This document shows positions 48,250 through 64,000 of a stretch of DNA of 64,000 nucleotides, in pieces. Position numbers and translations under genes: made by a program. The stretch is taken from positions 11,222,001 to 11,286,000 of the forward strand of contig JBNRSN020000029.1 of assembly GCA_051313645.2 (NCBI GenBank). The letters run 5' to 3'. Each line of letters opens with the position of its first letter. Within the stretch, counting starts at the first letter, position 1. The notes beneath the pieces were generated by a model, which had not been told where the DNA came from, ran no database searches, and was given only the letters and a program-made list of their open reading frames with translations. This DNA is from Centroscyllium fabricii (Eukaryota).

Positions 48250-49364
48250 GGGCCCTGTCTTCCTGTGGCCTGATTGCTGCGGGTGCGTGCAGATTTGCAC
48301 CCGTCCGAGATTTTTTATTTTTTTATCTGCTGGACTTCCTGTGTGAAATGTCGATTTTTTTTCGTGGGCAGGGGTCTGTTTTTTTTTGGTGCGTAGTGCT
48401 TTGTGCGTTGGTCGGGTGCAGGACACGCCCCCTGAGGTCGGCTTTTTGAGACCACGCCCCCACAGAACGCACAGATCAAAGAAAATCAAGTGTTCAACTA
48501 AAGAAAAGAACAGGTAGGGAAGAAGTTTTTCTTTGTTTTTTTTCAGTTTGTAGGAAGCTGGTCTTACAGCTTGTAAAGCTGATGGTTTTTATATTTTTTG
48601 TGATAGGTCAAAAATCGGCGATTTCAACCCCTGGCAGCTCTCAGCTGAAACAGCTCAGCTCTCAGCTGGAATCGCGTAGAAATCGCTGATTTTTTAACTA
48701 TCACCCAAAAATATATAAAGCTTCATGTTTGTGGTCTTACAGCTTGTAAATCTGCTGGTTTATATATTTTTTTGTGAAAGTTTAAAAAATCGGGAATTTG
48801 AACAGCTCAAATTCCCGATTTTTTAAACTTTCACAAAAAAATATATAAACCAGCAGATTTACAAGCTGTAAGACCACAAACATGAAGCTTTATATATTTT
48901 TGGGTGATAGTTAAAAAATCAGCGATTTCTACGCGATTCCAGCTGACAGCTGAGCTGTTTCAGCTGAGAGCTGCCAGGGGTTGAAATCGCCGATTTTTGA
49001 CCTATCACAAAAAATATAAAAACCATCAGATTTACAAGCTGTAAGACCACAAACAAATATCTCCAAAGGAATATTTTTTTTTAACACTTTAAACCTGTTT
49101 TTTTCACTTCTCAAACCTGCCTGCACTCTCTTAAGACTGGTATTTACGTGGGCAGAAAAATGGAGGCTTCCCCACGTTGTACACCTGAATTTTGAGCATC
49201 AGAGTACAGGAAGTCTGCAGCTCAAAGTGCTTCGTGGGGAGGAAGCTGAAGCCCCTTGCCCATCAGCACAGGAAGTTCACGTTTCTGGTAAGCACCTGAG
49301 CTGCCTCCCCATGAAGCATTTTCGTGGGGGGGCAGCTCTTCTGGAGCACAGGAAGACAGGGCCC
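48250..49364. mobile_element. Non-autonomous DNA transposon (MITE, 1115 bp) with 18-bp TIRs, possibly PIF/Harbinger-like
   Basis: Perfect TIRs GGGCCCTGTCTTCCTGTG (48250-48267) and CACAGGAAGACAGGGCCC (49347-49364), with ATT on both sides. The ACAGGAAG motif recurs subterminally (about 48335 reversed, 49206, 49268). It interrupts CR1-a and has no transposase ORF. The superfamily call is an inference from the GGGCCC ends and 3-bp flanks. Confidence 0.82.
48559..49049. repeat. Long inverted repeat (palindrome): 243-bp arms, 5-nt loop
   Basis: Arm 48559-48801 is the reverse complement of 48807-49049 around the loop ACAGC. Two mismatches were seen by eye. Confidence 0.95.
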
Positions 49365-50012: not shown

Positions 50013-53000
50013 TCATAGAGTCATAGAATCATACAGCACAGAAAGAGGCCCTTCGGCCCATCACGTCCGTGCCGCCCATCCAAACCTAGTCTATTCTAAT
50101 CCCACTTTCCTGCATTTGGACCGTAGCCTTGTATGTTGTAACCTTTCAAGTGTACATCCAAATGCTTCTTGAACGTTGTGACTGTTCCCGCCTCTACCGT
50201 TCTTTCAGGCAGTGAGTTCCAGACTCCAACCACCCTCTGGGTGAAAAAGTTCTTCCTCACATCCCCCCAAAACCTCCTGCCTCTCACCCTGTATCTATGC
50301 CCCCTCGTTATTGACCCTTCCACCAATGGAAAAAATTCCCCGCCATCTACCTTATCTATGCCCCTCATGATTTTGTACACCTCAATCATGTCCCCTCTCA
50401 GCCTCCTCTGCTCCAAGGAAAACAACCCCAGCCTGTCCAGTCTCTCCTCATAGCTGAGGCTCTCCATCCCAGGCAGCATCCTGGTGAATCTCCTCTGCAC
50501 TCTCTCCAAAGCTATCACATCCTTCCTATAGTGTGGCGACCAGAACTGCACACAATACCCCAGCTGTGGCCTCACCAGTGTTTTGTACAGCTCCATCATC
50601 ACCTCCTTACTTTTATATTCTATGCCCCTGCTAATGAAGGCAAGTATCCCATATGCCTTCTTGACCACCCTACCCACCTGCCCTGCTGCCTTCAAGGACT
50701 TGTGTACCTGTACATCAAGGTCCCTCTGATCATCTGTCTTCCCTAGAGTGCTACCATTCATGGTGTATTCCCACTCCATGTTAGTCCTGCCAAAATTCAT
50801 CACTTCGCACTTTTCAGGGTTAAATTCCATTTGCCACTGTTCCGCCCATCTGACCAGCTCATCTATATCCCCCTGCAGCCTGCAGATCTCTTCCTCACTA
50901 TTTACCACCCCTCCTATCTTCGTGTCGTCTGCAAACTTGCTGATCATGCCTTTTACGTTGATATCCAAATCATTAATATAGATTACAAACAGCAAGGGAC
51001 CCAAAACTGATCCCTGCGGTACCCCACTGGACACCGGCCTCCAGTCACAAAAGCAACCTTCGACCATCACCCTCTGCCTTCTGTCACCAAGCCAGTTTTG
51101 GATCCATTGTGCCAAGGTGCCCTGGATCCCATGGGCTCTTACCTTCTTGAGTAGTCTCCGATGCGGGACCTTATCAAAATCCTTACTAAAATCCATGTAG
51201 ACCACATCCACTGCACTACCCCCATCCACATACTTGGTCACCCCTTCAAAAAATTCAATCAAATTAGTCAGACATGATCTTCCCTTGACAAAGCCATGTT
51301 GACTATCCTTAATTAATCCCTGACTCTCCAAGTGAAGACTGATTTTGTCCCTCAGAATTTTTTCCAGTAGCTTCCCCACCACCGATGTCAGGCTCACTGG
51401 CCTGTAGTTCCCTGGTTTTTCCCTACTGCCTTTCTTAAATAATGGTACCACATTGGCCATCCCCCAGTCCTCCGGCACATCCCCTGTTGCAAGAGAGGTT
51501 CTGAAAATTTGTGTCAAAGCCCCCGCAATCTCTTCCCTTGCCTCCCTCAGCATCTTGGGATACATCTCATCAGGACCTGGGGACTTATCTACTTTTAAGC
51601 CCGCTAGAACCGCTAGTACCTCCTCCCCGTCAATACTAATACGATCAAGTATATCACATCTCTCCTGTCCTATTTCTATGTCTGCATCGCCCCTCTCCAT
51701 CGTAAAAACAGATGCAAAAAATTCATTCAAAACCCCACCTACATCTTCTGGCTCCACACACAGCTTCCCGCTTTGGTCCCTGATGGGCCCCACTCTTTCC
51801 CTTGTTATCCTTTTACCCTTAATATACTTATAGAACACCTTGTGATTATCTTTTATTTTGCCCGCTAGTGTTATCTCATGGCCCCTCTTTGCTCTCGTAA
51901 TTTCTTTTTTAAGAACCCCCCTACACCTTCTGTATTCCTCTAAACTCACCTGTGACTTTAGTTCTTTATGCCTTCCAAAAGCCCCCTTTTTTTCCGAATC
52001 AATTTTAATATGTCGCTCGACATCCAAAGCTCCCTGGGCTTATTTGTCCCACCCGTGACCTTTTGGGGAACATGTTTCCTTTGTACTTTTTCAATTTCTT
52101 CTTTGAACGCCCCCCACTGTTCTGAAGCGGTCTTTCCTACGAGTAGCTGATCCCACTCCACTTTGGCCAATTTCTCCCTTATCAAATTAAAATCGGCCTT
52201 GCCCCAATTTAGAACTTTTACTTTTGGTCCATCTTTGTCCTTTTCCATTACCACCTTAAATATCACTGAATTGTGATCACTCTCACCAAAGTGCTCCACT
52301 ACTGACACTTCAACCACCTGCCTGTCCTCGTTCCCCAGGATTAAGTCCAATACCGCCCCCTCCCTTGTTGGACTTTCAACATATTGGCTCAAAAAGCCCC
52401 CCTGAACGACCTTTAGGAATTCTGCACCCTCTAAGCCCTTCCCACTTTGGCTATCCCAATCAATATTGGGGAAGTTGAAATCCCCTACTATTACTACCCC
52501 ATTGTTTCCACACACCTCCGAGATTTGCCTGCAAATCTGTTCCTCTATTTCCCTCTGACTGTTTGGGGGTCTGTAGTATACTCCCAGTAATGTGCTTGTC
52601 CCCTTTTTATTTCTAAGTTCCACTCAAATGGCCTCGTTAGAGGACCCAGTCAATATGTCATCCCTTCTTACAGCAGTAATTGATTCTTTGATTAATACTG
52701 CAACACCCCCTCCTCTTTTTCCCTCCACTCTGTCTCTCCTGAAGATTCTATACCCCAGAATATTGAGCTGCCAGTCCTGCCCCTCTCTCAGTCATGTTTC
52801 TGTAATGGCAACAATGTCGTTCTCCCATGTGTTTAACAACACCTTCAATTCATCCCCCTTGTTTGCAAGACTCCTTGCATTAAAATAAATGCCATCTAAC
52901 CTTGCCCTGCTCCCTTGTGTCGAGCCACTTTTGTTCTGCCTTCCAATCTGACTTGTTTTTTCCTCAATATTTGCCTTTTCGTCATCCCCTATTTTTGCTC

Positions 53001-53086: not shown

Positions 53087-53193
53087 TCTGCGAAGCCATT
53101 TTGTATCCAAGTTATCTGGTCCTGTAGGAGTTCCAGGCTCCATTCTGTGTTGCCTGACTGTGCTCCATAATAATAAGGAAATACACTTCTACA
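53087..53193 (-). mobile_element. ERV 3' LTR, U3 start
   Basis: The minus strand starts TGTAGAAGT directly after a polypurine tract. Joined to 49450-50012 it gives an LTR of about 665 bp. Confidence 0.8.
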
Positions 53194-53587: not shown

Positions 53588-53890
53588 TACTCAAATTCAA
53601 TTCACTGTTCCGGTGTTCCAATTCTGTCCCGCCTGGGGTATCCCCTGTTTCTTTTATCTTTCCTGATGTTACCCCACCTGGGGTCTCCTCTACATTGCTT
53701 CGGATCTTCTCTTTCGGTGTGCTCAGTTCATTTGTTGGTGCTGGTTAGTCATGGGCATGAGTACCCAATTGGCTTATGTATCAAAGTCTTACTACATAGC
53801 TTACATATATCAAATACACTATTATTACAAGTTGGATAACTACCAGAGCATGTGTGTTGTGTATGTATATAGTGTTCCAGTTAACATGGC
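53588..53890 (-). mobile_element. Probable ERV internal sequence upstream of the env deletion junction
   Basis: Contiguous with env. The env frame stays open for about 50 low-complexity codons and has no recognisable domain. Assigned by position only. Confidence 0.45.
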
Positions 53891-54894
53891 TGTAACGGTT
53901 GGGTGTATTCGGATTGAAGGCGGGGCCCAAATGCAGAGACACTGAAACGTTTATAATACTAAACAACTTTATTACTTAAACCCCTTATACTACCCTAAAC
54001 ATACAATTATAAATAGAATAGAAACACATCTACGACACAAGTCTTAATAAACAGACCGGCACAAACTTCCAAACAGCGAGCAATGAATTAGAGGGAGGCC
54101 ACGCAATCAAGCGCGACTTACTCCCACAAAATACCAGTCCTGGCATAACTGTCCAAACCCACAAGAGAACCGAGCAAGTCCTCCTCAACGAGCATGACAT
54201 CTCATTACACCCTCTGCTTAGAGGATGTGGGAACAGCTATGCTTCCAAATGACCAATGTCCAAACCAAGGTTCGGATGATGAAAAGAATGTCCATGTAGT
54301 GGAAATGGGTCCGACCTACTTCTTCTGCTCTTGCACAGAGACTTAACCCCATGGACGTCAGGCAGTAGCGCACCAGATCACACCGGCAGGGGGACTCCCT
54401 TACCAAACAGATGAATATCCATAGCTGAGTTCTCAATCGCAGGGAGCACTGTTAAGGCAGAGGAAAATGCGTTCCACCCCAGCTGCCCCTGTTGGGTAAC
54501 TCAGTCTGAGCACCAGAAATAGCAACGAACAAGTACCAGCTGAGTCCATCGATCTGCAACTTCCTTGATCTGTCACGGCCACTCAGCACAGCAGAAAACC
54601 ACCTCCTTCTAGTGGCCTGAAGAATGAATAATGGCAGTCCAGTCCCATGACGCATTACTCTCCAATGAACCAGCATCTGACCTCAGCCAACCTCCTGATT
54701 ATATGCTAACCCCAGTAAGTACCCTATTGGGTGATAGCCAATAATCCTGAGGGGCATGAGACCAGAGCACAACTTCCACACACATAGATAATAGAACAAT
54801 TAATCACTTAACTAGGGAACCTATTCCTTAAAACAGCTGTGGAAGCACAGCAAAAACAGCTTCTAATATTTAAAGGAACAGGCCCCCTGTGACA
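53891..54894 (-). mobile_element. 3' LTR (1004 bp) of a non-autonomous Tf1/sushi-type Gypsy element
   Basis: TGTAAC...GTGACA termini. Repeated 1182 bp away at 55073 with about 4 mismatches. Minus-strand ATATAA at 54699-54704 and AATAAA at 53968-53973. Confidence 0.9.
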
Positions 54895-55072
54895 GGACCC
54901 CCCCCTTAAAGGGCCGACAGTGACGGCCCAAATACCCAATAAGCCAAAATAGGGTGGGCGGAGGGTACAAAGAGGAGAACAACAGTCTACACAAAAAAAA
55001 AATCTTTTTTTTTTTTTTACCGAGTGCTTAAACGCAACAGTGTCTGCTGGGCCCCATCTGGCTGGTTCATTC
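54895..55072 (-). mobile_element. 178-bp non-coding interior of the LTR element (PBS and PPT only)
   Basis: PBS AATGAACCAGC (minus strand, 55061-55071) lies 1 nt after the 5' LTR. PPT AAGGGGGGGGTCC (54895-54907) lies before the 3' LTR. No ORF. Confidence 0.85.
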
Positions 55073-56025
55073 TGTAACGGTTGGGTGTATTCGGATTGAA
55101 GGCGGGGCCCAAATGCAGAGTCACTGAAACGTTTATAATACTAAACAACTTTATTACTTAAACCCCTTATACTACCCTAAACATACAATTATAAATAGAA
55201 TAGAAACACATCTACGACACAAGTCTTAATAAACAGACCGGCACAAACTTCCAAACAGCGAGCAATGAATTAGAGGGAGGCCACGCAATCAAGCGCGACT
55301 TACTCCCACAAAATACCAGTCCTGGCATAACTGTCCAAACCCACAAGAGAACCGAGCAAGTCCTCCTCAACGAGCATGACATCTCATTACACCCTCTGCT
55401 TAGAGGATGTGGGAACAGCTATGCTTCCAAATGACCAATGTCCAAACCAAGGTTCGGATGATGAAAAGAATGTCCATGTAGTGGAAATGGGTCCGACCTA
55501 CTTCTTCTGCTCTTGCACAGAGACTTAACCCCATGGACGTCAGGCAGTAGCGCACCAGATCACACCGGCAGGGGGACTCCCTTACCAAACAGATGAATAT
55601 CCATAGCTGAGTTCTCAATCGCAGGGAGCACTGTTAAGGCAGAGGGCAATGCGTTCCACCCCAGCTGCCCCTGTTGGGTAACTCGGTCTGAGCACCAGAA
55701 ATAGCAACGAACAAGTACCAGCTGAGTCCATCGATCTGCAACTTCCTTGATCTGTCACGGCCACTCAGCACAGCAGAAAACCACCTCCTTCTAGTGGCCT
55801 GAAGAATGAATAATGGCAGTCCAGTCCCATGACGCATTACTCTCCAATGAACCAGCATCTGACCTCAGCCAACCTCCTGATTATATGCTAACCCCAGTAA
55901 GTACCCTATTGGGTGATAGCCAATAATCCTGAGGGGCATGAGACCAGAGCACAACTTCCACACACATAGATAATAGAACAATTAATCACTTAACTAGGGA
56001 ACCTATTCCTTAAAACAGCTGTGGA
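55073..56025 (-). mobile_element. 5' LTR of the same element, interrupted in U3 by the Tx1 LINE
   Basis: Near-identical to 53891-54843. It stops at ...AACAGCTGTGGA, where the LINE 3' end begins. Confidence 0.92.
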
Positions 56026-56081
56026 TCTCTTTTGATACACGGATTATCTGTAACCAAAAATTTTACTTAACTTTTAACAAA

Positions 56082-59000
56082 TTAAATTAAAATTTGATTG
56101 ACCGGGGTGACGATGCACTCCAATCCCCCCGGCGCCCAACGGTCGCGAAAAGCCTCAAGCGTACCGTCGGACACCGCGTGCTCCATCTCCAGGGCCACCC
56201 GGGCGCAAACCTGGCCGCGAAAGAGAGGCAGGCAATCTGGTTGGACGGCCCCCTCAATGGCCCGCTGCCTGGACGAGTAGATGGACCTTTTCGCAAGTCC
56301 CAGGAGCAGACCGACGAGGAGATCCTCCAACCTGCCCGCTCCCCTCCGCACCGGATGGCCGTAGATCAGGAGCGTGGGACTGAAGTGCAACCAAAATTTG
56401 AGGAGCAGCCCCTTCAAATAATGATAGAGGGGCTGCAACCTCCCACATTCTACGTAAACATGGAACACGGACTCTTCCAGGCCGCAGAAATGACAGGTGG
56501 CCTGGGAGTCCGTGAACCGACTTAAAACTTTGTTGCACGGGGCTACTCCGTGCAACACTCTCCAGGCCAAGTCCCCAATATAACAGGGGAAGACTCCCGC
56601 GTAGAGAGCCCCCCATTGGGGACCTCCACCTCCGCCGGACGGCAAGATGGCACGCCAGGGCGTGTCCGGACGGCAGGCGAAGATGACAAAGTGGAGAGTG
56701 TGCAGGAGCAGCCCGTACAGGAAACGCCTCCGTGCGGTGTCAAAAGGCACGGAGGGCATCTCACCGAGACGGCTCAAGTTGTGAGGCGCCGGTCCCCGAG
56801 AGGGGTTTTGGGGCCGGGCGCCGATGAGGAATTCCGTCCGAACGGGGGTCAGCTCGGACGGGAGCACCCCACTTCTTTGAGCCGCCTCAATTCTTTTAGT
56901 GTAGCCAAGGCCCAACGCCACTTTCAGCGACTCGATGGCTTTGGCCGCGAGCCGGCCATTATCATGACCCAGACGCTGCGCCAGCTCCTCTGGCGCCATC
57001 CAGCCCGCTCCTCCGCCATCAAGCAGGTCCCTGACTATAGTCACCCTGCCAAGCACAGCTCTGTGTTCCGCCAGCCACCCGAACCCTCGGTCGCGGAGGT
57101 GCGGATTCCTGAGCAGCGGCTCTCGAAGGAGAGCCGCCACTCCTGACGGGAGAGAGGTGCGCCTGGAGGCGACGCTGTTCCAAACCCAAAGCAGTTCCTG
57201 GTAAAAGACAGGCAGCTCCCGAAAGCTGGCACGTGTAACGCCCACTTTCACAAACAGGAGCTGCGTGTCATAGTTGAGGCCGTGCAACTGGCGGAAGAAA
57301 TACGTCGCCATCGCACACCATCTAGGAGGATCCTCAACGTACAGGTATCTCTGCAGCGTCTGTAGACGGAAAGTCGCCGCCTGGGTGCGGAGGCACACCA
57401 GCGCCTGACCGCCCTCCCTAAGCGGGAGACACAGAACCGCGGCAGAGACCCAGTGCTTCCTTTTGTCCCAGAAGAAGTCGATGAGCTTCTTCTGTATCCT
57501 GGTGACAAAACCAGGGGGAGGGATCAAAGTGACCAACCGGTACCACAACATGGCGGCCACCAGCTGGTTTATGACTAGCGCTCGACCCCTGTAGGACAAC
57601 ACTCGGAGCAGTCCTGTCCAGCGCCCTAGGCGAACGGTGACTTTGGCCTCCAGCTCTTGCCAGTTCGCCGGCCAGGCTTCCTCGGCTGGGCTGAGGTGGA
57701 CTCCCAAGTAGAGGAGGTGCGTGGTGCTCCAGGCGAAAGGCCTGAACTCCTCCGGCAGGGAGTCCACCTGCCACTGACCCACCAGGAGTCCGGAACATTT
57801 CTCCCAGTTGATCCTGGCGGAGGATGCGTCCGAGTAAATCTGCTGGCATTCTCGCATCCTCCGCAGGTCAGCGGGATCCGTGACCATGAGGAGCACGTCA
57901 TCGGCGTAAGCCGAGAGGACAACCTCCACGCCCGGCCCTTGCAGAGCCAGTCCCGTCAACCTCTTCCGCAAGAGGCGCAGGAAAGGCTCCACGCAAACAG
58001 CATATAACTGACCGGACATGGGGCATCCCTGACGTACCCCCCTCCCAAAGCGAAGGGGCGCCGTTAAAGACCCGTTAACTTTAATCAGACACTCCGCGGC
58101 AGCGTACAAAAGTCGGATCCGGGCGACGAAATGCGTCCCGAACCCGAATGCGCGCAGAGTCCCGAAAAGGTACTCGTGATCCACCCTGTCGAACGCCTTC
58201 TCCTGATCCAGGGAAAGGAAGGCGACCGACATGCCAGCCCTCTGGGAATGGTGGAGCAGGGCCCGGACCAGATGGACGTTGTCGTGGATTGACCGGCCCG
58301 GGACCGTGTAGGACTGGTCGGGATGGATCATGTGGGCCAGCACGGTGCCAAGGCGGGCAGACATGGCCCTGGCAAAAATTTTGTAATCCGTGCTGAGGAG
58401 GGAGACCGGGCGCCAGTTTTTAAGGAGGCGGAGATCACCCTTCTTTGGCAACAGGACAATGACGGCCCTGCGCCACGAGAGGGGCATCTCCCCGGTCGCC
58501 ATACTTTCCCCCAGGACCCGCTGGTAATCGCCCCCCAGGACGTCCCAGAACGCCCTGTGGAACTCCACGGTCAGCCCGTCCAGCCCCGGGGACTTTCCCC
58601 TCGAGAGCTTGCCGAGGGCACCGGTCAGCTCCGCCTGACTTAGCGGAGCGTCCAATTGTTCGGCGCCCTCCGGACTGACCCTTGGCAGGTCCTCCCACAA
58701 AACTCTACGCGCATCCTCGCTGGACGGATCCGGAGAGAACAGAGACCCGTAAAAGGACCGGGTCTCCGCACTGATCCCCTCCGGATCCGAGACCAGAGAT
58801 CCGTCGTCGGCCAGCAGCATCAAGAGCTGCTTAAGGACCCCTCGCCTTTTTTCCAGCGAGTAGAAGAAGGGGGAGCCGCGGTCCAGATCCCGCAGGAACT
58901 GGATACGCGACCTCACGAACGCGCCTCGGGACCCGACGAGCTGCAGGTCCTTCAGCGCGGCCTTCTTTTCTTCGTACACCGTCCGCAGGGCCGGGTCCCC

Positions 59001-59981
59001 AACGACCTGACCAAGGCGGGACTCTAGGTCGAGCACTTCCTTCTCTACTCGCTCGACCTGAGCTTTCCGCCCCTTGGTCGACCCCCTCGCGTACTCCTGA
59101 CAGAAGAGACGGACGTGAGCCTTGCCCACGTCCCACCATAGCCTCAAGGAGGGGAAGCCCCCCTGCTTCCTTCTCCAGTCGGCCCAGAACCGACGGAACG
59201 AATCCCGGAATCGCGCGTCCTCCAGCAGCAGGTTGTTAAAATGCCAGTACGCGGACCCCCCCCGCGCGCGCAACAGAGCGAGCTCTGTCCACACCAGGTG
59301 GTGGTCCGTGCACGGCACCGGCCGCATGGAAGCCGCCCGAACACAGGAGACGTACGCCCGAGAAATGTAAAGGCGGTCGATTCGGGAGCCTCCTCCTCCA
59401 GACCTCACATAGGTGAAGGCGCTCGAGTCGGGATGGAGATTCCGCCAGACGTCCACCAAGTCGAAGGACCCGACCAGGTCCCTCAACTTCTCTGTCGATG
59501 CCGAGCTGTACGGATGACCCGAATGGTCCCTCGCCTCGAGGGTACAATTGAAATCCCCCCCGAGGATGATGCGCTCGCCGCCATCGATAGAGCTCAGAAG
59601 AGCGGACACTTCTTCAAAGAAGCCAACTTGCTGCGCACCGTACTTAGGGGCGTACATGTTCAAAAGATGGAGCGGCACGCCCCCGTGACGAACAGTGACC
59701 TGGAGCAAGCGGCCCGGCACGTGCTCCTTGACCCTCAAGATCTCCGGCTGAAAATGTGGGGCCAGCAAGATAGCCACCCCGCTGGACAAGTTGGAGAGGT
59801 GACTCATGCTGACCCCTCCTTGCCACTCCAGGAGCCACGTGGCCTCGTCTCCCGGAACGGTGTGGGTTTCTTGCAGGAAGCACACCGCATACTTCCCGTC
59901 CCGGAGGACCGAGAAATTGTTAAATCTACGGCGTGCCTCCCTGCTGCCATTGATGTTGAGGCTAGCTATAGTTATCTTCAT
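56082..59981 (-). CDS. Tx1-type ORF2: AP endonuclease, reverse transcriptase and C-terminal CCHC finger (1299 aa)
   Basis: APE motifs SLNING, FLQETH, GGDFN, SRIDR and TDH. RT motifs KSPGLDG, NWRPVSLL, LDQEKAFDRV, GVRQGCP and YADD. C-terminal CHFC..ESVFHVYVEC. Uninterrupted, with the architecture of Xenopus Tx1 ORF2. Confidence 0.97.
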   Translation of the reverse strand: MKITIASLNINGSREARRRFNNFSVLRDGKYAVCFLQETHTVPGDEATWLLEWQGGVSMSHLSNLSSGVAILLAPHFQPEILRVKEHVPGRLLQVTVRHGGVPLHLLNMYAPKYGAQQVGFFEEVSALLSSIDGGERIILGGDFNCTLEARDHSGHPYSSASTEKLRDLVGSFDLVDVWRNLHPDSSAFTYVRSGGGGSRIDRLYISRAYVSCVRAASMRPVPCTDHHLVWTELALLRARGGSAYWHFNNLLLEDARFRDSFRRFWADWRRKQGGFPSLRLWWDVGKAHVRLFCQEYARGSTKGRKAQVERVEKEVLDLESRLGQVVGDPALRTVYEEKKAALKDLQLVGSRGAFVRSRIQFLRDLDRGSPFFYSLEKRRGVLKQLLMLLADDGSLVSDPEGISAETRSFYGSLFSPDPSSEDARRVLWEDLPRVSPEGAEQLDAPLSQAELTGALGKLSRGKSPGLDGLTVEFHRAFWDVLGGDYQRVLGESMATGEMPLSWRRAVIVLLPKKGDLRLLKNWRPVSLLSTDYKIFARAMSARLGTVLAHMIHPDQSYTVPGRSIHDNVHLVRALLHHSQRAGMSVAFLSLDQEKAFDRVDHEYLFGTLRAFGFGTHFVARIRLLYAAAECLIKVNGSLTAPLRFGRGVRQGCPMSGQLYAVCVEPFLRLLRKRLTGLALQGPGVEVVLSAYADDVLLMVTDPADLRRMRECQQIYSDASSARINWEKCSGLLVGQWQVDSLPEEFRPFAWSTTHLLYLGVHLSPAEEAWPANWQELEAKVTVRLGRWTGLLRVLSYRGRALVINQLVAAMLWYRLVTLIPPPGFVTRIQKKLIDFFWDKRKHWVSAAVLCLPLREGGQALVCLRTQAATFRLQTLQRYLYVEDPPRWCAMATYFFRQLHGLNYDTQLLFVKVGVTRASFRELPVFYQELLWVWNSVASRRTSLPSGVAALLREPLLRNPHLRDRGFGWLAEHRAVLGRVTIVRDLLDGGGAGWMAPEELAQRLGHDNGRLAAKAIESLKVALGLGYTKRIEAAQRSGVLPSELTPVRTEFLIGARPQNPSRGPAPHNLSRLGEMPSVPFDTARRRFLYGLLLHTLHFVIFACRPDTPWRAILPSGGGGGPQWGALYAGVFPCYIGDLAWRVLHGVAPCNKVLSRFTDSQATCHFCGLEESVFHVYVECGRLQPLYHYLKGLLLKFWLHFSPTLLIYGHPVRRGAGRLEDLLVGLLLGLAKRSIYSSRQRAIEGAVQPDCLPLFRGQVCARVALEMEHAVSDGTLEAFRDRWAPGGLECIVTPVNQILI

Positions 59982-60009
59982 ATCAGCAGCACAATACTAA
60001 TTTTTTTTC

Positions 60010-62162
60010 TTATCGGGGGGGAAGAGCGCAGTCCGTGGACTTACGCCCCTTTTTCCGCAGCCCAGTGAGGAACTTTTGGAGCTGGCGCAGCTCGAGGTCA
60101 TTATCGCCCCTGTCCGCGGCCAAGGTTTTAATGGCGACGCGGACGGACAAAATGAGCGGCGCCAGCTCCGGCCACTTTTCGATGGCCTGACGGACCATTT
60201 TTGGGCGAACCGGGTGCGCGGCCACATATTTCCGGAGCTCTGCCACGGGGACGAGAGGAGACTCAGCGGGGGGCTCGGGGTCGTCCACCGCCTCATCGGC
60301 GATGGACTCTAGCTCATCGTCCTCGCCCAGCTCCGAGTCCCCGTCGCCCTCCGGAAGGTCACCACCGGCGTCCACTCCATCAGCCGCGCAAAACGCGACT
60401 GACGGCCCGGCCGCACCGTCCGACCCTGCCTCTGTCTCGATCCCACCCCCAGGATCGATGGCAGAGGAGTCCTCCCTGGGCTCCACCCGGGATGCCGGGC
60501 CAGAGGGAGGCAGCAGTTCGGGGCTCCCCTCCTCCTCAGGCGCCGGAGAGCACGGAGAGACGGGGACATAAACAAATGTTATGCTCTCCTGTGCGTCCGA
60601 CGCCAATGTCGAGGGAGGGGTGAGTGAGCCGTCACCTTCCCCGCCACCAACCACTGACCCAGCTTGTAGGGTACCCTGGTTAAAATCCTCGATGATGTCG
60701 AGCATAAACTGGGAAACCACGGTGCTGTCTTGGGCGAGGTCTATCCCTTCGACCTCGCCCTCCTCCGTCTCCAGTACGCTCGACCCACCGGGGCAAATTT
60801 TTTCCCCTTGAAGGTCTTGACGTTGCCGAGGTTGATCCGCGTCCCCCCCTCGGGCAGGGCCAGATCCCCATCCCCGGGAGACACGGGCAGGACATTCTCC
60901 TCCGCCCCACTCTCCCGCAAGACAGGCGACCCCTGCCCGTCTTTAGCAACTATAATGATTTTGGGAGGGGGCGCGGAGCACGACGACTCTGCTCCCTCGG
61001 GGGGACCGTTCTCGTGATCACGGCCCCCCTGCTGATCCTGGGAGTCGAAGTCCTGTTTTCTTTTTACGCTGAGGGGACCCTGAGGGGGGGCGACCTCCAT
61101 CTCTCCTAAGGCCACCCCCTCCTCCGTTCCCCCCGGCTGAATAGTTATTTCGGGCCCCTTTTTTCCGAGCCCTGCCGCAGGTGTTAAGTTTTCTGCCATA
61201 GCAGTGGCGGCCGCAGGCTCAGACTCGGGGCCCTCCTTGCTCCCATATTGTTCCCGCAGATTCTCAAGGTACTCGGGAGTCAGGACTGGCAGGTCTGGCT
61301 GTTGGGCATCCCCAGCTAGGGGACCCTCCCTCCTTTGTTTAGCCCTACTCCGCGTCCTCTTTTTGTCCGGACACGTTTCCTCCCCCCCGCCGGAGGCCGT
61401 GATGACATTGGCCTCCGACGACCCCCGCGCACCCGACTTCCGAGACGCGCGGTCTGGCTCTGGGGGAGGAGCGGCGCCGGTGCCCTTTTTGGCCGCACTA
61501 TTATTGGCGGCCTTGGAGGCGGGGCAGTTCCTCCTGATATGCCCCACCTCCTTACATACATGGCACCGCACGCCGTCCGTCGTCCAGAAGACGCGGTAGG
61601 CGGTCCCCTGGTGCAGCACGAGGAACGCGCCATCAGTGTCCTCCTCCTGCGCCAGCTGCATGTATAGCTGACGCCGGAAGGAGAAGACGTGGCGAAGGCT
61701 GGCCTCCCGGAACCCGAGCGGGATGGGCGTTATCCCCGACCTCACCTCCCCAAGTTTGCGTAGGTGGGGGAGAAGGAGCTCACCGGGAATATAGGGCGGG
61801 ATGTTCGAGAGGACCACCCTCTGCCCGGCGGCCTCAAGAGGGTCCACCGACAAGAAGGTGCCGCCCACGGTGAGCCCTTGTTCAATGGCCAGGGCCGCCG
61901 CCCGCTCGGATTTGAGGAAGAACACAGCCTTCCCATACATTTTAGAGGCCGCGACGATGGCTGAGGGGCCGACCACCCCAGCCATGGCCTTAACGCAAGC
62001 CTCTATTGTCATGGATGGGTGAGCGTAGCTCCTCACCCCCAGTTTCCTTGTCAGCAGCCGGAATGGTGACGGGGCATCAGGGGCAGCCGTGGTCTTGGCA
62101 GTGGATGCCACGGTTGCGTATGTTCCTGATGTCCCCGCCACCGGCGAAGGTAGTGTCGCCAT
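60010..62162 (-). CDS. Tx1-type ORF1 (nucleic-acid-binding protein with CCHC knuckle), split by one -1 frameshift near 60845
   Basis: ATG at 62162 (MATLPSP). Conserved N-terminal region (IVAASKMYGKAVFFL, VVLSNIPPYI, LRHVFSFRRQLYM) and knuckle CHVCKEVGHIRRNC. ORFs 60741-62198 and 60010-60720 join into about 717 aa if one base is added, for example in the C7 run at 60843-60849. Confidence 0.85.
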
Positions 62163-62399
62163 GCTACCAGGTGGGGGGGTTTTTGGAGCCACGCTCACCC
62201 CAAGTCACAGGCCTTAAGATGGAAAGTGGCCTCAGGTTTTGATTTTCCTCTTGAGCAGAGGGGGGTGGGGAGTGATTAGATAAAGACACACCCCTCCCCT
62301 TGATGACAGAAGGGGGAGGGGCCTTCTCCCCTCTGCTCAATTGGCAATAGAACAAAATAAATGAAAAGAAATAATTGAGGTGCCTCTATGGAAAGAGGC

Positions 62400-62421
62400 A
62401 GAGAGAGAGAGAGAGAGAGAG
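62400..62421. repeat. (GA)n microsatellite in the Tx1 5' UTR
   Basis: About 11 AG units, read directly. Confidence 0.9.
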
Positions 62422-62741
62422 GGGTGGTGGGAAGGAGGGAGACCACAAGGGTTGGGTCACCACTCAGGATGGATGGGTGGGTGGGTGTTGACAGGTAGGG
62501 GTACACTCTCTGATGGAAAGTTACAAAGTCTGTTGATGATGGTCTTCTGGTGGGGGGAGAAGATGTCTTCACCTGGGATAGCTGGAGATGCCCAGGCTCA
62601 GTCCTCAGTCCTCACCAGGTCTTTAACGATAATCAATTAAACAAATCAAAAGACTTCACCTAGGCAGCTCCAGCCGTCCCAGGCCAGGCAAATAGAAGGG
62701 GTGCTTTTAAGTGGTGTGCGTGGCCTAGTTTAAATAGGAAC

Positions 62742-62760
62742 CACACACACACACACACAC
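62742..62760. repeat. (CA)n microsatellite in the Tx1 5' UTR
   Basis: About 9-10 CA units, read directly. Confidence 0.9.
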
Positions 62761-63108
62761 CCCTTGATGGTCCGGCCTTCTGGTCCTCTTTTCTCCCCCC
62801 TCCTACAAATAAACACAGTCTTTGCGAGAGTGCACCCAATGAAACCACACCCACCTCAGATGGTTATTCTCCCTCCTTCTAAGCAGTTGGTGGTGATAAT
62901 GTCTTTCTCACCACTCTCTCCCTCTCCCGAAATGGAGGCCAATCTGGAAGGCAATGATGGGAAGGCCTCGATGTTGATGTTGGTTTCTTGGCCTTCCTTT
63001 CCTCTCCTCTCCTCCGTCCTCTCTCCCGAAGCACCTCTGCTTGACCAAATAATCTGGCAGCACTGGAGCTCCCCACACAAGCCTGCCTCCACGCAGCTAG
63101 GACTGCAC

Positions 63109-63434
63109 ACCAGCTGAGTTCATCGATCTGCAACTTCCTTGATCTGTCACGGCCACTCAGCACAGCAGAAAACCACCTCCTTCTAGTGGCCTGAAGAATG
63201 AATAATGGCAGTCCAGTCCCATGACGCATTACTCTCCAATGAACCAGCATCTGACCTCAGCCAACCTCCTGATTATATGCTAACCCCAGTAAGTACCCTA
63301 TTGGGTGATAGCCAATAATCCTGAGGGGCATGAGACCAGAGCACAACTTCCACACACATAGATAATAGAACAATTAATCACTTAACTAGGGAACCTATTC
63401 CTTAAAACAGCTGTGGAAGCACAGCAAAAACAGC
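63109..63434 (-). mobile_element. Resumed 5' LTR: a 309-bp duplicate of 55717-56025 plus 17 further LTR bases, then truncated
   Basis: 63109-63417 equals 55717-56025 except C55728/T63120. 63418-63434 continues the LTR as in 54844-54860. The last 34 LTR bases are absent. Confidence 0.93.
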
Positions 63435-63611
63435 ACTATTTTGTAAAGCGTAATGATACTGCAGTACCACTTCTGACCTCCGATGTATATAAGGTTCTGA
63501 GTGGAGTGATTTACTTAGTTCCATGCTCTGTTATCGATTAGTAAACACCTGTTTGTATTAACTCTGGAGTTGAGTCTTATTATCATACCATAAGATAGTA
63601 CGGACATAACA
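63435..63611 (+). mobile_element. Short or 5'-clipped LTR of a different Gypsy element
   Basis: TATATAA at about 63486, AGTAAA at about 63540, and an AACA end directly before a tRNA PBS. The start is uncertain (63435, or the TGT at 63442). Confidence 0.7.
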
Positions 63612-63612
63612 T

Positions 63613-63623
63613 TGGCGACGAGG
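63613..63623 (+). promoter_or_regulatory. Primer-binding site complementary to the 3' end of tRNA-Ser(GCU)
   Basis: TGGCGACGAGG lies 1 nt after the LTR CA. It is complementary to ...CCUCGUCGCCA, a PBS common in Mag-clade Gypsy elements. Confidence 0.8.
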
Positions 63624-64000
63624 TCGGTTGGACCCATGGTATTGGAAACAACAAGGAAGAAAAACAAAGGTTTTTTCTAAAGCCAAGAAGAAAAGAAAAA
63701 TTTTGCAGCGGCGACGGTCGAGTTCAAGGACCCACCCTGCACTCCAACAGTGGCAGCAGTTTCCAGAGTGGAACAAAAATAACGGAGACAGCCAGCACTC
63801 CAACATCGGGGAGTAGCGTTGGCAGCAAACGGAACGGCCAGCACTCCAACATCGGGGAGTGGCGTTGGCAACAGCGGCGGGAAATTAGCCACAGGATCAG
63901 GAGACGTCGAGCTGAGGACTCGACCAGCATCGGTTAGCGACGCCGACGGTGAAAAACACCGCGAACAAAGGCGGGAAGGCTACAGAAGCCAGCCGACAAT
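63624..64000 (+). mobile_element. 5' internal region of the Gypsy element (runs off the window)
   Basis: Follows the PBS and is CpG-rich. A 34-bp direct repeat lies at 63791-63824 and 63837-63870. No recognisable gag yet. Confidence 0.55.

Follow-up and report, generated by a model that had tools for sequence, protein, structure and literature searches.

We analyzed a stretch of 64,000 nucleotides from Centroscyllium fabricii (contig JBNRSN020000029.1, positions 11,222,001 to 11,286,000, of GenBank assembly GCA_051313645.2), referred to here as the window. In it, a full-length long interspersed nuclear element (LINE) of the Tx1 clade (56026..63108, minus strand; 7083 bp, without poly(A)) lies inside the long terminal repeat (LTR) of another transposon, between two copies of a 309-bp repeat. 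Comparison with related loci throughout the genome revealed that such repeats are chimeric. The 3' repeat is target sequence throughout, while in the 5' repeat the first ~150 bp follow the local target and the Tx1-adjacent end follows the Tx1 lineage, with a variable switch point between the two. We consider it probable that this target-specific LINE uses a borrowed LTR promoter and that homology on the downstream side of the nick establishes its 5' junction.

The window locus and the Tx1 family

The two copies of the repeat (55717-56025 and 63109-63417) are 309 bp each, extend no further at either end and differ only at one position (55728 C, 63120 T). The original prediction had described a 309-bp repeat that brackets the LINE exactly with one mismatch, had taken the uninterrupted sister (3') LTR (53891..54894, minus strand; 1004 bp, TG...CA) as an in-window empty site, and had proposed target-primed reverse transcription (TPRT) of a minus-strand element primed at 56025. 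The comparison supports all three: the ends of the repeat are the Tx1 termini, the sister LTR contains this sequence a single time and matches 55072-56025 with 99.6% identity across 954 bp, and the geometry is that of such priming. With LTR positions (nt) numbered from window position 54894 downwards, the 3' repeat (55717..56025, minus strand) is identical to nt 52-360 of the sister LTR and represents the original target, with the nick and priming site at 56025/56026. The 5' repeat (63109..63417, minus strand) also covers nt 52-360, and allele comparison assigns its proximal part to the target and its Tx1-adjacent part to the element. LTR nt 35-51 follow upstream of it (63418..63434, minus strand), so that an intact target site is regenerated there. 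The right-hand LTR piece ends at 63434, where ~33 bp of the LTR end and the target-site duplication (TSD) of the LTR itself are missing.

By all structural tests, namely two open reading frames (ORFs), an N-terminal APE endonuclease with a reverse transcriptase (RT) and an ORF1 with a zinc knuckle, the window element is a member of the Tx1 clade. ORF2 (56082..59981, minus strand; 1299 aa) is open and encodes the APE and RT domains. Its best named full-length match is the Xenopus TX1 149 kDa protein (Tx1L ORF2), with 49% identity over 100% of the length, and it is this protein match, not a tree, on which the placement in the clade is based. Partial hits of 70-71% suggest that the genome is probably that of a cartilaginous fish. 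ORF1 (60010..62162, minus strand) is frameshifted in the window copy and encodes 707-724 aa in most other copies of the family. The body of the window element is 96-99% identical to dozens of full-length copies elsewhere in the genome.

The genome searched comprises 7.2 Gb, and places were taken for exact patterns among the matches listed, so that later contigs are under-sampled; the loci and contigs that were compared are labeled by L-numbers (L002, L219 and so on) and C-numbers. At least 419 Tx1 3' ends are found genome-wide by two disjoint exact patterns (193 + 226). LTR nt 52 is the 3' junction in 30 of 30 loci of the first search and, by exact count, in 189 of 193 3' ends. Hence, of the alternatives previously offered for the long repeat, a trait of the family or targeting of this LTR, both apply. 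The copy in the window has as its target the 5' LTR of a minus-strand LTR element, miniature and non-coding, with two 1-kb LTRs; one 20-mer of this LTR has 2800 exact matches genome-wide. A C/G variant at LTR nt 53 tracks the 3'-end lineage of Tx1 in the loci compared (L101-L130 vs L002-L030), which suggests that target preference may differ between Tx1 lineages. In addition, the 3' junction of one locus (L098, 1-100) is doubled by a short additional copy of the Tx1 tail and looks like priming that was aborted and then restarted.

Four types of 5' junction are present: class I (169 matches), in which the LTR runs to nt 336 and is followed by 39 nt, class II (171 matches), the type of the window, in which it runs to nt 360, a third pattern (135 matches) with a leader that contains a repeated 21-bp unit, and a fourth type. 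As these totals are near that of the 3' ends, most copies are full length. For 151 of 200 3' ends among the matches listed, the nearest upstream feature is a class I or II junction. The misses that were sampled trace to arrays of class III/IV or to a variant of the junction, to insertions or to internal deletions (L064, L092, L116, L122), to a gap in the assembly (L090), to a copy joined to unrelated DNA (L097) and to the truncated copy L078. The same 200 3' ends form 55 clusters, 23 of them single. Full-length copies lie between repeats of 285-351 bp, with lengths of 285, 309 or 351 bp in the different sense sub-lineages. ORF2 is open in 42 of 54 full-length stretches and both ORFs are open in 33, and many copies of the family look young. 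Neither chance nor assembly artefact can serve as a general explanation, as many unlinked loci have this structure, with variants specific to the locus, and a one-off event is likewise rejected. For the window locus itself, contigs from four runs of one study placed on 62300-63800 are fragments, none of which reaches across it.

Chimeric origin of the flanking repeats

The two repeats were compared in 30 solo full-length loci, with six arrays (L064, L065, L076, L083, L134, L135) and the truncated L078 left out. The mean number of differences between the 5' and 3' copies within a locus is 0.20 in nt 54-200, 0.83 in nt 201-260 and 1.57 in nt 261-336, as compared with 2.94, 4.02 and 2.38, respectively, between the 3' copies of different loci. 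In nt 261-336, 5' copies of one class differ from each other by 0.85, vs 2.38 for 3' copies. Beyond nt 200, differences between the repeats occur in 22 of the 30 solos (83 events, a number inflated by the counting of one indel several times). When informative sites in 27 solos were scored by modal alleles, the 5' copy was target-like at 47 sites and lineage-like at 1 in nt 52-201, target-like at 64 and lineage-like at 9 in nt 202-251, and lineage-like at 39 and target-like at 12 in nt 252-360. In the 17 loci compared with an uninterrupted sister LTR, the 3' copy is identical to it in 14 and one substitution apart in the other 3. The mismatch in the window fits into this pattern, as 63120 T (LTR nt 349 A) is common to 8 of 11 class II solo 5' copies, the 3' copies of which have G; it is thus an inherited allele rather than the result of decay.

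The 5' copies also contain sequence that has no template in the target. At the solo locus L219/L220, a 21-bp triplication is present in the 5' copy only; it also occurs in the 5' flanks of two arrays whose terminal LTRs, L148 and L163, are without it. Further cases come from insertions in the opposite orientation: 10 further junctions among the 18 non-canonical 3' junctions are antisense insertions at LTR nt 121. In four antisense 5'/3' pairs, each a full element length apart (these elements are known from their ends), the repeat is 120-121 bp long and reaches the edge of the LTR. Beyond it, the 5' side has 41 bp of the LTR-element interior in three of the four pairs, or a 33-bp foreign piece in one, and the 3' side continues into unrelated flank in all four. 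Loci L203-L217 represent this antisense subfamily at LTR nt 121, with three carried leaders, one type of which leads to tandem spacers of ~160 bp.

Truncated copies have short duplications. L078, a 125-bp truncated copy at the antisense site, has a TSD of 14 bp, and L201, at a non-LTR site, has a TSD of 15 bp and consists of 8 units that share one truncation base and include three 3'-end variants. The L201 structure is in line with repeated insertion in which homology joined each new unit to the preceding copy, together with later duplication. No 5'-truncated copy was found at the canonical nt 52 (200 3' ends among the matches listed, misses sampled). L190/L192 was considered as a candidate for a short TSD combined with a leader and was rejected as a microhomology deletion; L218 lies within the element and thus offers no junction. 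Full-length copies do not present the canonical APE-LINE product, a TSD of 10-20 bp, and are flanked instead by chimeric repeats of 120-351 bp.

Many copies are arranged in arrays with a period of 7.4 kb. The longest stretch described here (G000:C224:101.52-101.91 Mb; L152-L159, L189-L200) has 43 leader matches over ~375 kb, corresponding to at least 43 units, with an ordered succession of lineages. In nine mixed arrays, 14 of 15 switches among four 3'-end lineages go in one direction. Proximal spacer haplotypes are array-specific and, single private substitutions aside, persist in 6 of 7 arrays shown, and spacers change stepwise, almost always distally and without reversion (C613, C1:397.5 Mb). 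The polarity and the stepwise distal changes therefore favor extension of the arrays at the 5' end, although unequal crossover may add units inside them.

Proposed mechanism and competing explanations

A TATA-like box of the LTR, with a function predicted from its sequence, lies in the 5' repeat at nt 192-196 (63273..63277, minus strand; second copy 55881-55885). The putative LTR transcript start, at nt 221-231 (63238..63248, minus strand; second copy 55846-55856), is an 11-nt stretch 25 nt past this box that is complementary to the primer-binding site (PBS) of the host LTR element. The stretch and the PBS covary through a compensatory change and correspond to each other in 36 of 37 readable rows (some loci entered twice). 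In self-priming LTR elements, the transcript pairs by its 5' end with the PBS (PMC4600332), which is why the LTR start is placed near nt 221; the host element shows this self-priming feature, its PBS being complementary to the presumed 5' end of its transcript. Donor alleles start at nt 215-226 in three loci (L061, L066, L137), and the extra 39 nt of class I start out like nt 211-228 in a variant of the LTR and are perhaps the relic of an older leader. From the allele gradient and the TATA/PBS geometry, we infer that Tx1 RNA begins at the LTR promoter, at ~nt 211-221.

The course of insertion that we consider probable would be as follows. The endonuclease, as expected from the clade, would nick the LTR in U3 at nt 51/52, where the insertions are indeed found, and TPRT would start. 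The element RNA would come from the LTR piece upstream of the donor, beginning at ~nt 211-221, and would carry an LTR leader of 115-140 nt that ends at nt 336 or 360; it is this carried leader that is seen in the 5' copies. The 3' end of the cDNA would then find the same sequence in the target top strand at a distance of 170-310 bp downstream of the nick, pair with it and extend back along the target over nt 220-52. From a cut of the top strand within or at the end of the homology, synthesis of the second strand would be primed and run across the element and the displaced strand of the target. Such joining would leave a 3' repeat of pure target and a 5' repeat that is target proximally and donor distally. 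Each copy would gain a complete U3-R upstream and leave the target site intact; with promoter and site rebuilt upstream, later copies would insert 5' and arrays would grow there, the polarity that the arrays display. The antisense subfamily would use the same route at LTR nt 121, with 120-bp repeats, and the mechanism predicts a lineage-specific repeat length and few truncated copies. L201 suggests that any earlier insertion downstream of a regenerated site may serve as the homology.

We also lean towards a broader reading, in which the LTR is a renewable pseudo-LTR of a LINE that depends on its promoter, 5' strand transfer is guided by homology, and the second-strand cut follows the branch point rather than a fixed distance. 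Part of this reading is that the trait arose repeatedly, with at least 4 sense and 3 antisense junction types.

Several points weigh against the proposed course and need to be considered. The start site is deduced from sequence, and L069, L073 and the L102-to-L103 array step carry foreign alleles upstream of it, so that longer read-through RNAs or later recombination are needed there. The modal-allele proxy performs poorly in nt 202-251 (64 target-like sites vs 9), and most switch points would therefore lie well downstream of the presumed start. In 5 of the 30 solos, the repeats differ within nt 54-200 (6 events). The antisense leader possibly stems from divergent LTR transcription. Later tandem duplication occurs too, as is evident from the alternating units of L201, and, as no truncated copy was found at nt 52, the short-TSD control consists of two events at other sites. 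Finally, the TSD of the host LTR is mismatched in one of 10 cases checked (C613).

The first alternative is a true long TSD, in which the second strand is cut ~285-310 bp from the nick, the repeat is all target, and lineage-like alleles came about afterwards, with the homogenised Tx1 body as the source of gene conversion. The proximal ~150 bp are target-derived, 7 of 30 solos are without any 5'/3' difference, and long TSDs are reported for R9 and Dualen in the accessible parts of the sources; in addition, each new junction class must have arisen once by distant joining. However, conversion should also have reached the 3' copy beside the Tx1 3' end, yet this copy is target-like, and it leaves the sequence without a template in the 5' copies unaccounted for. 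The length of the repeat is set by the sub-lineage and not by the target, and truncated events yield 14-15 bp. A true long TSD is thus unlikely, and the earlier suggestion of an ordinary TSD, made by a cut at the fixed distance of 309 bp, is not supported, given the lengths that vary by sub-lineage, the donor-derived distal part of the 5' copy and the short duplications of truncated events. Nor does the Tx1 family show the R9-type product, a duplication entirely from the target.

Alternatively, RNA of the whole LTR from upstream of the nick could anneal to the upstream target as in R2, making the 5' repeat all donor. R2 offers a precedent (PMC6895275), the foreign alleles far upstream in L069 and L073 are in line with it, and read-through RNA from arrays would include entire spacers. 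As a general route, it is contradicted by 47 of 48 informative sites in nt 52-201 being target-like and by the persistence of proximal haplotypes through the spacers of 6 of 7 arrays shown. We regard it as improbable overall, although it may explain a minority of loci.

Spread at the DNA level would involve an excised circle of Tx1 and repeat that integrates in another LTR by homologous recombination, or arrays formed by unequal crossover only. This would yield a donor-derived distal 5' copy, and blocks of near-identical units as well as the alternating units of L201 indicate some tandem duplication. However, it predicts a donor-derived proximal 3' copy, while the observed 3' copy equals the sister LTR and the proximal part of the 5' copy; the one-way order of lineages in arrays, the off-target TSD of 15 bp at L201 and the doubled 3' junction of L098 are also left unexplained. 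Such spread is largely refuted for solo loci and, taken as a whole, very improbable.

Recombinants of two insertions (LTR nt 52 and nt 336/360; in the original prediction, positions equivalent to 55717 and 56025), or hitchhiking inside the LTR element, deserve hardly any weight, although the 2800 LTR matches offer many substrates for recombination. The 30 first-search loci, the 189 of 193 exact-count ends and the 18 non-canonical junctions inspected include no 3' end that lies at nt 336 or 360. The TSDs of host LTRs agree on the two sides of the insertion in 9 of 9 hosts with a solo LTR and in 9 of 10 other cases, most of them arrays, so that these are not recombinants between loci. Sister LTRs are usually empty, and host LTRs are 88-99% identical to the window LTR, as compared with 96-99% for Tx1 bodies.

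Neighboring repeats, known systems and significance

The miniature LTR element of the window comprises, besides the sister LTR, a non-coding interior of 178 bp (54895..55072, minus strand), with a self-priming-type PBS at 55061-55071 and a polypurine tract at 54895-54910, and the rest of the interrupted 5' LTR (55073..55716, minus strand). The element is putatively sushi-like (Tf1/sushi). Such elements, non-coding in the copies examined, are abundant, with 1-kb LTRs, an interior of 160-185 bp, TSDs of 5-6 bp and a covarying self-priming signal, and some are arranged as tandem LTR-interior chains. The nesting at the window locus is triple: Tx1 lies within the miniature element, which lies within the 5' LTR of a ~6.8-kb Gypsy-type element (window and L085 1-8220). 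The right part of this outer LTR is at 63435..63611 (plus strand) and its left part at 53855-53890. The Gypsy-type element has its PBS at 63612 and encodes RNase H followed by integrase; its 3' LTR is interrupted by a further element that encodes an RT and is probably CR1-like. Elsewhere in the window, positions 1-47314 are a satellite array with an 18-bp period (~2628 copies, 85% matches), which gives rise to many spurious long ORFs. Nested inverted repeats of 68-78 bp at 48559-49055 are possibly a remnant like a miniature inverted-repeat transposable element inside a LINE fragment. A minus-strand LINE at 50096-52623, presumably CR1-like, has its endonuclease and RT frames split and is broken by another insertion near 53090.

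The comparison with known systems relates, except for R2, to the accessible parts of the cited sources. Tx1L is a site-specific nicker (PMC1950540), and the crocodilian Tx1-8_Crp and Tx1-4_AMi prefer LTR retrotransposons as targets (PMC4494074). The present family resembles Xenopus Tx1L, which inserts in Tx1D, and the crocodilian pair in being of the Tx1 clade, with APE and RT, and in inserting into another transposon; the carried LTR leader and the ~300-bp repeats are not mentioned in those parts of their descriptions. Tandem SINEU-3 copies sandwich a TSD, the TSD of SINEU-3 being 16 bp (PMC4494074), and TSDs of APE LINEs are given as 10-20 bp (PMC6895275). R9Av of bdelloid rotifers makes a fixed 126-bp duplication (cited in PMC6895275, bioRxiv 10.1101/2022.05.23.493040) and is thus, like the present family, a site-specific non-LTR element with a fixed long duplication. 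Unlike the present family, with its APE and LTR target, R9Av has a restriction-like endonuclease and a ribosomal DNA target, and a distant second cut is the explanation given. Dualen-4b_cRei of Chlamydomonas has very long apparent TSDs, with a median of 900 bp (bioRxiv 10.1101/2022.05.23.493040), and 309 bp is therefore no length record. Its duplications vary in length and are ascribed to two endonucleases, whereas the repeats described here are fixed, lineage-specific and chimeric.

R2 is co-transcribed from the promoter of its target, and a retained 28S leader (27 nt in R2Bm) has been proposed to make the 5' junction by strand invasion (PMC6895275). Co-transcription from a target promoter would be shared by the Tx1 family, as the allele gradient and the TATA/PBS geometry suggest. 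However, the R2 leader matches the target upstream of the nick, without duplication, while the present leader (nt ~220-360) matches 170-310 bp downstream, and the promoter is duplicated.

Drosophila HeT-A and the pseudo-LTRs of Penelope are known examples of non-LTR arrays with a head-to-tail order, where the promoter that transcribes each copy lies in the upstream repeat. In those cases, the element itself supplies the repeats from its 3' end, while here they come from the LTR of another transposon and are supplied anew by the target at each insertion. In the accessible literature, we found no report of a downstream-homologous leader that gives fixed chimeric repeats; subscription journals, Repbase and supplements, which may hold TSD data for LTR-targeting Tx1 elements, were outside the scope of this search.

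The joining of the LINE 5' end and the site of the second-strand cut are still described as poorly understood (PMC6895275, accessible part). Here, hundreds of natural insertions in a polymorphic target record which bases came from the donor and which from the target, and they point to homology-guided joining as setting the length of the duplication. Other long TSDs that lack an explanation, such as that of R9, may arise by the same route, which also suggests a rule for designing full-length, site-specific insertion. For the Tx1 family, it would provide a way in which a LINE inserted upstream of a promoter can stay transcribed while sparing the promoter of its host, and it accounts for arrays that are directional and reach ~375 kb. 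If the pseudo-LTR reading is true, these arrays record the succession of the lineages of the family in order.

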